DNA of 63,989 nt, the filler included, from Collodictyon triciliatum (taxonomy: Eukaryota): NCBI GenBank assembly GCA_043381765.1. It is 27 parts of 27 records of this genome, joined end to end, with 100 filler letters (N's around TTAATTAATTAA, not from the genome) between each part and the next. Parts side by side here need not be neighbours in the genome. Positions count along the whole stretch, not along the records: positions 19,182 to 21,474 come from JBHJMP010009136.1; 26 more parts are not named here. One strand, given 5' to 3'. Shown here one piece after another: positions 16,788 through 25,801 of this stretch (its first letter is position 1; each line of letters starts with the position of its first letter). The notes below the pieces were generated by a model. It had not been told where the DNA came from. It did not search any database and saw only the letters and a list, made by a program, of their open reading frames with translations. Made by a program: the position numbers and the translations under genes.

Positions 16788-17478
16788 CCTTCCAAATCAC
16801 CGCTCTCTAATGCTTAGCATCACCAATAGGGAGCTATGAATGGGCACACGCGCGGCAAAAGCTGGCAAAGTCTCCCAACAATGCACGCTTTGAAGCAACG
16901 GTGATGAGTCCATTGAGCACCCATTTTTTACAATGTCCCTTCGCTCAAAACCTGCGCGAAACAGCTGGTGAGATTCTTCGGCCGACACTCAAGACGGCTG
17001 CGGCTGTTTGTCCAATCCAGGCGATGTTTGGGCCTCTGCAACTGCTGCGTCCAGAGGCAAAAACATTCTGGGCAGCGACGTGAGGCCATTTGCTATGGAC
17101 TGTGTGGATAGCGCGCATATACTCACGCAAAGCAAGACTCAACAACCAACCACCCATTCCTGATAACAGGCTGTATGATATCATTCAAATCTATTTTCTC
17201 ACCAGCTTTCTTCGCCACCTGCACGTTCTCTATTACTCAGACCCCGTGAGAAGAGACATGTGGAAAGAGGCTGAGAAAGATGTTAAACCTCGCCTTGTAT
17301 CTCTCATGCAAGCACAAGACCCAGGCTACAGGCCAAACCGCAGGATGCAATTCCTGATTACCGACTACTTCTCTGCCAACCAGCCAACAAGTAGCGTCCA
17401 TGCAAACGATGGCTATCGAACCAAAGCCAAAATCTTCACCATCCTGCACAAAATTGAAATTAAGAAGAAAAAAAAAAA
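16788..17478 (+). mobile_element. Decayed L1/Tx1-like LINE, 3' end (zf-RVT/CCHC domain, C-terminal extension, A-rich tail)
   Basis: CTL*SNGDESIEHPFLQCP zinc knuckle, LLWTVWIAR, in-frame TGA stops and an A-tail at 17462-17478. Homologous to the element at 60812-61997. Confidence 0.85.
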
Positions 17479-19360: not shown

Positions 19361-20919
19361 CATCGGCAATTCCTGATTTCAAAGCCTCTGGTGATGCGAA
19401 CCAGACTGTCGCACCGATGAATATAGTAGAATAAAGAGACATAATCTGCTCGGCGATATGACTAAAATATATCATGAAAAAATAAGTATTTACAGATTTA
19501 ACTTCGAATTGAATAGAGGAAAAAGCATTTACAGTTTAAATTGTCATAAAATTTTAAATTATGGTTGCACTGTTTGATCAAATGAACAATCTAATCACAA
19601 ATATTTTTTTTAATGACGCTGGGAAGATATATTTCGTCAATATGCTGGGCACTGCTCAATACCTTAAAGGCAAGTAACTAACGACATTTTCATTCTCTCC
19701 GTGTCTATAAAGGGATATCATAGCCTTCACAGTCCATGTTATGTTTTTATGAGAAATCATGACACCTTTTGGATTTCCAGTGGTTCCTGATGTATAAATG
19801 AGAGAGCAAACATCATCCACCTCAAGTGTTCGAATTCTTTTTTGGAGCTCTTCATCAGAAACCTTGTTTAAAATTCAGTAAAGATTTGTTGGAGTGAAGT
19901 TACGCTTCTCAGAGAAAGTCCAAAGTTTGACTTTGATTCAAAACTCACCTTTTCTCCTTCTTTTATAAAATTGCTCCAGGTAATAGCCCAGTTTTCAGGG
20001 TCTGGGGTGTCGTTCATAACTATAATCCTTGTGATACTTTGGATTTTATGACGCCGAAGTCTAAACTTTGCCAGCTGTTTTAAATCTTCCACAAATACAA
20101 GCTGCAGAATAATAATATAGGATAATAAATATACTTAAAAAAAACACATTTTTTTGTAAAAAAATATTGCCTGAGAGTCAGAATGCGTCGTGATGTATTC
20201 GCATTGGTCAGGACTACTTGTTGTATATATACCGGACACTACTCCACCCACGTGGATTGCACCGAGGGCCGATAAAAACCACTCCGGTGAATTGAAACTG
20301 ATTATGGATATTCCCTTTCCTATCTCTAAACCACACGCAATCATCGCCTAGACAAGGCACATTTGCACATTGGTGAAAAAATAACTCGGCACAATTTTTT
20401 AATCAATGGTTCCAAATAACCTTCACATGCATGTACTACTTTATTTGATTGAAAATATTGATTTCATGTTTATTCATTCAAACTTTGATTTTTGGTTATA
20501 TAAAAAAGAGAATAACCTTTGCAGCTAGCATCACATCTTCGTAATAATTTGTGTAAGTCCATTTTTTCCATTCCCCTTCAACTTTTACACACAAAGCATA
20601 GACGGACGGATATCTAAGTAACCAAATATGTAATTGTGAAGATTTATTATAGTAATAGGCTCCTGTGATTCAGTAATTCTTATCATTATCACTTTTTTTT
20701 CCTTTATTCGATTCAAAGTCTTATCATTATCACTTAAATGCATACATATTTTAAAAATAGAGCGCAAATAATTACTTCTCTACTGTTTGGCGAAAAAACT
20801 GAGGTACAGTTAAACAGTCAGACTCAGAATATTGTGGACGCTGCGGTCTTGGAGGCATGCTATTGGCTGCTTCTGGTGTATTAAGCTTCTTTGGCCTTAC
20901 TTCCTTTTCTTCTTGTATC
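19361..20919 (-). CDS. Long-chain acyl-CoA synthetase (ACSBG/bubblegum-like), partial, multi-exon
   Basis: AMP-binding IYTSGTTGNPKGVMISHKN, SYLPLSHIAEQ, FNSPEWF and GIYTTSSP motifs. Confidence 0.92.
20678..20735 (-). mobile_element. Ultra-short retroposon insertion in an intron with a 17-bp TSD
   Basis: tcttatcattatcactt (20678-20694 and 20719-20735) flanks ttttttcctttattcgattcaaag. Confidence 0.85.
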
Positions 20920-24299: not shown

Positions 24300-25430
24300 C
24301 CATTCGTGTGGTTTTTGTGCAAAACCAAAGGGCTTGGAGGCTAGCGATGTTTCCTCCACTTCGTTGAAGCCATTCCACGATTGATACTGCTTCCTCTGTG
24401 TTCATTGGCGAACTTGATGAAGCACTTTCGGCGAATCGACTGATGATTCGTCCACATTTTCGATACCCATTTCTCTGATTTTGGGGCCATTCATAAACCT
24501 TTTATTGATTGAGACTTCGAGCACTTCACCCGCGGGTTTCTTGTCACTATTTTCCCTCTGACGTTAGAAGACGACGCGTGTTGCCTTTGGCCTTGTTGAT
24601 GTGCTCTGGACTTGTTTTGCACAGACGATTCCTGCACATTTGGCCAGTCTTTAGCGCTAAAGCCGGCTGCTTTTGTGTTGGAGCCCAAGGTGTGTGGTGC
24701 CGTTTTGTTTCTTGGTGGTCGCTTTGTTTGGTAGTGACAGACTTGACAGTAGTTGTTTTTTTTGGCTGGCTTGACCTTTTGTGTCATTCCCTTCTTTGTT
24801 GGGGAGAGTTGATGGGATTTCAGACTCTTTGAGGGCGCGTATCTCCACGCGACAGCGTCTGCCATGAATGACGACAAAGGTAGGTATTTTCCCCATTTTT
24901 TCCTGTTCTTCGTCGAATGTAACGAGTGCATCATTCATGCATATTCCTCCAGGCTTTGTCCAGTTGACTTTGATTGGGGTGAAGTATTCACTGCAGCTTT
25001 GAAAATGTCGTTCTAGTGGACTCCAGCGGTATGTTAGACAGGTGCACAACCTTGGTGACAGTTTTTGCTGGCGTGTGGATGTATTGGTCATTAAGAAGCT
25101 GGAAAGACCCCTCTTTAATGAAGGCAGCTGCGTTTTCTTTTCTTGGGAAAGTGGTTCTGAGTCCGAGGGCAGGGTGGTCAACCATAAGAGTCACGTCCTT
25201 CTCGTAGCAATATCGGGCTTCCATTACAGCACGCATTTGCTTGCACATATTACTACGGTTTGCAAAAGAGAGAACAGGCCATTGCTTGCCTCGAAGGCGG
25301 ACAAAGCAGTGTTCGTCTTTAAAGAGTTCGTTCTCAATCGCACTTTTTAATCGCGGAACGTCAGCCACAAAAGATCGACCGAGAGGTTCTGTTTCCCGAT
25401 GCAAGCTGGACCGCGCAGGAGGCTGACTGG
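24300..25430 (-). mobile_element. Decayed probable L1/Tx1-like ORF1 (RRM-like domain plus basic tail), frameshifted
   Basis: KVVHLSNIPLE..., then in another frame KIPTFVVIHGRRCRV and CQVC. Intronless, with stops and frameshifts. Confidence 0.6.
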
Positions 25431-25801
25431 CGCTGTCGAAATCATGGTCTCGTATTTATTTTGCACTTTTTGACGGAACCATATGACTTTTTTTTTGCTG
25501 TCAATACATTCAGTCATTCAAAAATGAAAATATTAATAATATAATCTATACTTTACAGGATAGATTAATTAGCGCAATTTCTTAAAATGATGAAATATAT
25601 GTCTAACTATCACTTCGACGTTTTCATGGTTATTGTTAAATAATTCAATTGTATTTGCATAGACTTTACATATTCTTTCAAAAGTGGCCATCAAAGAGCC
25701 TTAATGACATTTTATTTCAGGAGTAAATGAATATTAAAAAAAAAATGGTTGAAAATGAGAGAACCGGCGAGCAAATGAGATTGCATGAAAAGAAAAAATA
25801 A

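Follow-up and report, generated by a model that had tools for sequence, protein, structure and literature searches.

Ultra-short copies of an APE-type LINE in Collodictyon triciliatum stop preferentially 18 to 19 bases from its 3' end

The genome of Collodictyon triciliatum (GCA_043381765.1, a 75-Mb assembly of 14,576 contigs) holds thousands of very short tailed inserts, which are 5'-truncated copies of an APE-type LINE that lack the usual smooth spread of 5' ends. In the window (the whole stretch of DNA analyzed, 63,989 nt) two of these stubs carry the same 18-mer, which an earlier note had interpreted either as a defined ultra-short non-autonomous element or as a stereotyped abort point of reverse transcription. 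This interpretation is partly supported, in that the abort point fits and the defined element does not: the 18-mer is identical to the 3' terminus of a resident LINE with APE endonuclease, reverse transcriptase (RT) and zf-RVT domains and appears to be no separate element, the lengths of the inserts form a continuum, and the G-run variants of the stubs are common to longer copies.

Copy 1 lies on the minus strand and by sequence reading consists of an upstream target site duplication (TSD) of 17 bp preceded by TT (20719..20735), an insert that in a comparison of LINE 3' ends equals the last 18 nt of the 3' UTR of this LINE, family 1 (20701..20718), an A-tail of 6 nt plus the first two A of the TSD (20695..20700), and a downstream TSD of 17 bp (20678..20694). 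The two TSD copies are identical and the target context is TT|AAGT, as the earlier note described. The second copy reported there, on another contig and with a different TSD, was confirmed as well (28045..28105, minus strand): identical 16-bp repeats (28090-28105 and 28045-28060) enclose the 18-mer (28072-28089) and an 11-nt A-tail in the target context TT|AGAA. Because both TSDs end in A beside the 18-mer and the LINE too has A at base 19, the 5' boundary of the two copies is 18 or 19. The close variant of the 18-mer at 60815-60834 indeed terminates a LINE, namely a diverged family-1 fragment (60812..61997, minus strand) that contains the RT end, the zinc-finger region and the 3' UTR, breaks off at 61997, where the contig ends, and is 86% to 91% identical to 29 other matches examined as loci. 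Since the window is a chain of approximately 2.3-kb contigs with runs of N between them, copy 1, copy 2 and the LINE variant are on different contigs. Matches to the 18-mer with up to 3 mismatches numbered 4, against 0.12 expected by chance. Compared with C401 and C1468, to which its matches are split, the window LINE seems to be several hundred bases shorter around query position 460. At 60494-60516 (minus strand), in a short inverted repeat 300 bases past the LINE end, an 11-nt sequence with no tail matches the beginning of the 18-mer, probably by chance.

Copy 1 sits in sense orientation within a GT..AG intron of 162 nt (20614..20775, minus strand) of an AMP-binding (acyl-CoA ligase-like) gene, 2 exons of which match PF00501. 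Contigs of run X1, which we guess to be RNA, join 20618 to 20772 and skip the neighbouring CT..AC introns as well. No joint across copy 1 alone, as from an empty-site allele, was present in the contigs of 4 runs, and among the runs on record none matched half of the stretch and no RNA run matched it; these results speak neither for nor against such an allele. The spliced gene with its small introns covers 19362-20900 (minus strand), and run X1 contains both identical pieces and a diverged relative.

Long family-1 copies, found via the window LINE fragment, end in the 18-mer followed by a short A-run, and positions 18 to 1 are conserved at 92% to 100% in 62 longer copies. This identifies the partner LINE with an identical 3' end that the earlier note had asked for. 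An N-terminal APE endonuclease domain (PF03372, Exo_endo_phos, E 2.9e-12) was detected upstream of the RT start in locus L344, the RT domain (PF00078, RVT_1, E 1.1e-32) in locus L112, and a C-terminal zinc finger (PF13966, zf-RVT, E 2.7e-07) in locus L100; family 1 is L1-like in build because of this order of domains. The nearest proteins in a homolog search were unnamed and 26% to 37% identical, which does not place the clade, and among the copies recovered there was no full-length one and no ORF1.

The insertion hallmarks confirm that these inserts arose by L1-type target-primed reverse transcription. Of the 100 copies in a census (the first 100 matches of the last 11 nt, all of them read), 54 gave a TSD call, compared with 17 of 300 control A-runs. 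Applying stricter rules to all 329 copies that were read, we called a TSD in 165, of which 151 were of 15 to 19 bp with a mode of 17 bp, and 145 had T or C before the TSD; the first nick on the top strand follows WY|AW. Family-1 copies thus show the A-tail and the 7- to 20-bp TSD at a T|A nick by which an APE-type LINE is recognized, and the inserts, which vary continuously in length, match the 3'-terminal sequence of the LINE exactly, as in 5'-truncated LINE copies. The tail averages 8.3 to 8.8 nt (approximately 8.6 nt) in every length class and does not vary with insert length (rho -0.02); a fixed total cDNA length was rejected, since tail and stub length do not trade off. Perfect TSDs were equally common in short (33/46), modal (45/65) and longer (40/54) copies, indicating that the length classes are of similar age. 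L174 and L158 consist of pure poly(A), or of one G and poly(A), between perfect 17-bp TSDs.

Of the 45 TSD-called junctions of the census, 17 were blunt, another 14 had extra bases and the remaining 14 showed microhomology. In a test on 31 census junctions its frequency was 45%, where 40% would be expected, which is no excess, and microhomology was discarded as the cause of the peak described below. We also examined a set of 89 copies that start at base 18 with a non-A base before it, 62 of them with a TSD. In the blunt junctions of this set the TSD met the insert at T|purine (T 25/30, p 0.0001; purine 27/30, p 0.0003; counted by hand and then tested). The signal was unclear in junctions with extra bases (T 18/44, purine 24/44) and in blunt junctions of at least 21 nt (T 12/25, purine 14/25), and the data therefore fall short of establishing a sequence-specific second nick. 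The T|purine preference at base 18 may reflect a second nick made by the endonuclease or pairing of T with an untemplated A. As a sole rule, starting at C was rejected (C23 0/90, C25 1/88; blunt starts of at least 21 nt C 11/25 versus 17/40 in the template).

Exact counts in the genome gave 3,153 matches to the last 11 nt plus a purine (control 19), 1,830 to the last 18 nt (reversed control 0), 653 of which have a non-A base just before, and 582 to the last 22 nt, so the high genomic abundance suggested by 2 copies in the window is real. Positions 28 to 3, with variants allowed, were found 463 times; hence 68% of the copies that reach base 18 fail to reach base 22 exactly and few are lost from 22 to 28. 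In the census, 35 copies start at 11-17, 23 at 18, 15 at 19, 4 at 20, 3 at 22, 12 at 26-36, and 8 are longer (n = 100). The 5' starts at bases 18 and 19 (38/100) are followed by a cliff after 20. In all, 329 of the 3,153 copies were read. In a second set, the first 100 matches of the 22-mer, 99 of which were recovered, 5 of 90 copies stop at 23-26, 45 of 85 at 27-38 and 6 of 40 at 39-44 (trough 23-26 versus hump 27-38, p 0.0004). Lengths run continuously from 6 nt, as in L090, up to long copies, and stubs of up to 8 nt gave 19 strict matches versus 6 in the control. The distribution has its mode at 18-19 and a broad shoulder of shorter copies; it does not consist of a single fixed length.

To compare this profile with that of a LINE copy stopping at random, we simulated a constant hazard at 7 rates (300 runs of 100 copies), allowing for actual target ends, added bases and mutation. 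At all 7 rates the chi-square was at least 111 over 7 bins, and the best model placed a mean of 9.4 and a maximum of 19 copies at 18-19. The smooth distribution of 5' ends that the earlier note expected of ordinary truncated LINE copies was therefore not observed, and its sharp boundary peak is real, although confined to 38 of 100 copies within a continuum of lengths.

A sister LINE served as a control. An open scan for tailed inserts flanked by TSDs over 872 kb returned 127 matches (shuffled control 0), 112 of family 1; the other 15 include a second family, 2 pure or near-pure A inserts, 3 further family-1 variants and one opposite-strand reading. The 3' end of a family-2 LINE lies in the window (17084..17477, plus strand), is 36% identical in amino acids to the C-terminus of the family-1 ORF2 (E 2e-16), and matches the family-2 stubs. 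Family 2 has 1,068 genome copies of its last 13 nt plus a tail, of which 716 reach 22 nt, that is 67% versus 18% of family 1 counted from 11 nt. Its profile is based on the first 30 matches, 11 incidental copies and 2 genome counts. The first 30 matches are all of approximately 110 nt or shorter, with stops mostly at 21-24 and beyond and no sharp spike; among copies that reach base 18, 1 of 27 stops at 18-19, the corresponding figure for family 1 being 38 of 65 (p 4e-7). Extreme shortness is therefore common to both families, and the spike is specific to family 1, because family 2 is ultra-short yet has no cliff. The last 30 nt of the 2 families (CTRCAC..TTGAA) align better than shuffles (p 0.005) and nt 57-30 do not (p 0.96), in a segment picked after the motif had been seen, and in both families the earliest stop cluster lies within or next to this motif, at a different base (18-19 and 21-24). 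Family 2 (L357-L386) has two 3' subtypes, and its stops are spread over 14-60 nt. A periodicity of one helical turn, suggested by stops at 18-19 and 28 in family 1 and at 21-24, 32-36 and 42-47 in family 2, found no support (p 0.12-0.16 for a period of 11 nt and 0.5-0.6 when all periods are considered) in 33 family-2 lengths read by hand, from which one 60-nt copy and those lacking a TSD call were excluded.

It is quite improbable that the profile reflects ordinary smooth truncation altered by three factors, namely selection acting against long inserts, collapse of long copies during assembly, and junction bases that match by chance. The genome is intron-rich with small introns, and a contig end or N cuts 14 of 94 copies of at least 28 nt, so long copies are undercounted; both points favor it. 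However, the undercount cannot bear on 19 versus 22 nt, 2 lengths that neither selection nor assembly should separate, the simulation failed, and family 2 passes base 22 far more often than family 1 in the same genome. Smooth truncation is refuted for the spike, and some of the overall shortness may still be due to it. Even harder to accept is an independent micro-SINE, in which some 18-nt stubs would be transcribed from source loci and recopied by the LINE machinery, amplifying one length. It would account for a fixed modal 5' base in more than 1,000 copies, and stubs could be passively transcribed within introns, as is likely for copy 1. SINEs with a partner-LINE tail are non-coding elements that share an identical 3' end with the LINE whose proteins move them. 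The stubs, unlike these, are wholly LINE suffix, with no SINE head carrying a Pol III promoter, no body, no sequence of their own and no evidence of stub copying, and 18 nt is too short for a promoter with an A box and a B box. Against a micro-SINE also stand the length continuum and the endings in GG, GGG and GGGG, which occur at 86:24:15 in stubs and 82:14:12 in copies of at least 28 nt (p 0.40). Among the 62 TSD-called copies of the 89 starting at base 18, the only 5' or 3' flanks seen in common belonged to one local tandem duplication. A B-box-like reading of the 18-mer was dropped, as the GTTC core of that motif is absent and ARAGORN returned one unrelated tRNA in the window.

We lean towards an early stall of target-primed reverse transcription, followed by joining to the already cut second strand, as the origin of the stubs. 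ORF2p would hold a 3'-terminal RNA element, made of a weak CUUUG/UAAAG stem and the adjacent CTRCAC motif common to the sister family, and would prime at a fixed distance into the tail, and the endonuclease would cut the second strand early, approximately 16 to 17 nt away. After approximately 27 bases of cDNA the RT would pause on meeting the protein-held part of its own template, and a premature switch to the cut strand would fix the stub with a blunt junction or 1 to 3 untemplated bases. The resulting stubs are probably inert and likely give rise to no further copies. The accessible part of PMC10830416 describes binding of ORF2p to a template stem-loop that may set the start of copying. Counting against this reading, the predicted folding energy of the stem is just -0.3 kcal/mol, some long copies (L095, L099 and L111) break it with no compensation, family 2 has the motif but stops elsewhere than at the homologous base, and no more than 54 of the 100 census copies have a called TSD. 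More tentatively, the stall might represent a checkpoint of abortive initiation, at which ORF2p fails in most attempts to release its grip on the 3' RNA after 18 to 19 templated bases and the cut second strand captures the stub; if so, the genome would contain thousands of single-base snapshots of an intermediate of target-primed reverse transcription, including the preference of the second nick. The main rival, which predicts the same junctions as an RT stall and which we regard as rather unlikely, is that templates are cut beforehand: host nucleases would trim the LINE RNA from the 5' side to the ORF2p footprint, and the tailed fragment of 18 to 19 nt would be copied to its end and joined by a template jump. 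Run-off at a template end is expected, from R2-type RTs, to leave blunt or extra-base junctions, and these outnumber microhomology (17 + 14 versus 14); the T at the TSD end (25/30) could pair with an untemplated A, and the ultra-short copies of both families point to a host factor. On the other side, the shoulder at 11-17 and the hump at 27-38 require several footprints, and no excess of a cap-type G was seen (G in 4 of 24 single extra bases), which also eliminated a cap-derived G as such. The early stall remains the reading to which we lean.

Human LINE-1, as described in the accessible parts of PMC7617806 and bioRxiv 10.1101/2024.08.27.596794, resembles family 1 in its ORF2 with APE, RT and C-terminal zinc finger, its A-tail, its T|A nick, a TSD in the range of 7 to 20 nt, and copies that are mostly 5'-truncated. 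Human somatic truncation breakpoints have their median at 5.52 kb of the element in that part of the preprint (bioRxiv 10.1101/2024.08.27.596794). Family 1, in contrast, has its mode at 18-19 nt and drops sharply after 20; its tails are of approximately 8 nt, its TSD is narrowly of 15 to 19 bp, and its target is WY|AW and not TT|AAAA. Human LINE-1 is 6 kb long, so that approximately 0.5 kb is inserted at the median breakpoint. The accessible text of the preprint (bioRxiv 10.1101/2024.08.27.596794) also reports solitary poly(A) tracts left by L1 events with severe 5' truncation; as here, extreme early termination is fixed with a TSD, and L174 and L158 are comparable, but as far as that text goes those inserts have no element sequence and no defined stop, unlike the family-1 stubs. 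In zebrafish ZfL2-2 (L2 clade), the available part of PMC2666801 gives approximately 50% microhomology and 40% extra bases at truncated 5' junctions and proposes that host end-joining curtails reverse transcription. Extra nucleotides at such junctions are thus found in ZfL2-2 and family 1 alike, whereas 17 of 45 family-1 junctions are blunt with microhomology at chance, and that part of PMC2666801 reports no fixed stop. Host end-joining factors of the kind that shorten ZfL2-2 inserts may explain the shortness common to families 1 and 2. A literature search of partial coverage turned up no paper describing a LINE whose truncation point is fixed and ultra-short. The cause of 5' truncation in LINE copies and the agent and timing of second-strand cutting are long-standing questions, and with approximately 4 in 10 copies of at least 11 nt stopping within 2 bases and a sister family as control, they become testable at single-base resolution. 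Standard repeat annotation likely overlooks inserts of approximately 26 bp, and LINE activity may therefore be underestimated in other genomes as well.

Several minor observations were made on the stubs and around them. Stub and TSD are tandemly repeated in L046 (C960) and L302 (C585), and matches are clustered on C1624 and C2236; stub inserts can thus seed short tandem repeats. Beside copy 2, at 27940-27965 (minus strand), lies a short hairpin with a sequence like a tRNA T-arm, which we take to be B-box-like, and ARAGORN placed no tRNA there. Broken frames at 24491-25455 (minus strand) may by eye represent a gene like a retrotransposon ORF1, and two of them gave no Pfam match. In L020, L016 (C48), L202, L209 and L232 a stub or longer copy is followed not by an A-tail but by A and a T-run, which may represent a tail that is inverted or has itself received an insertion.
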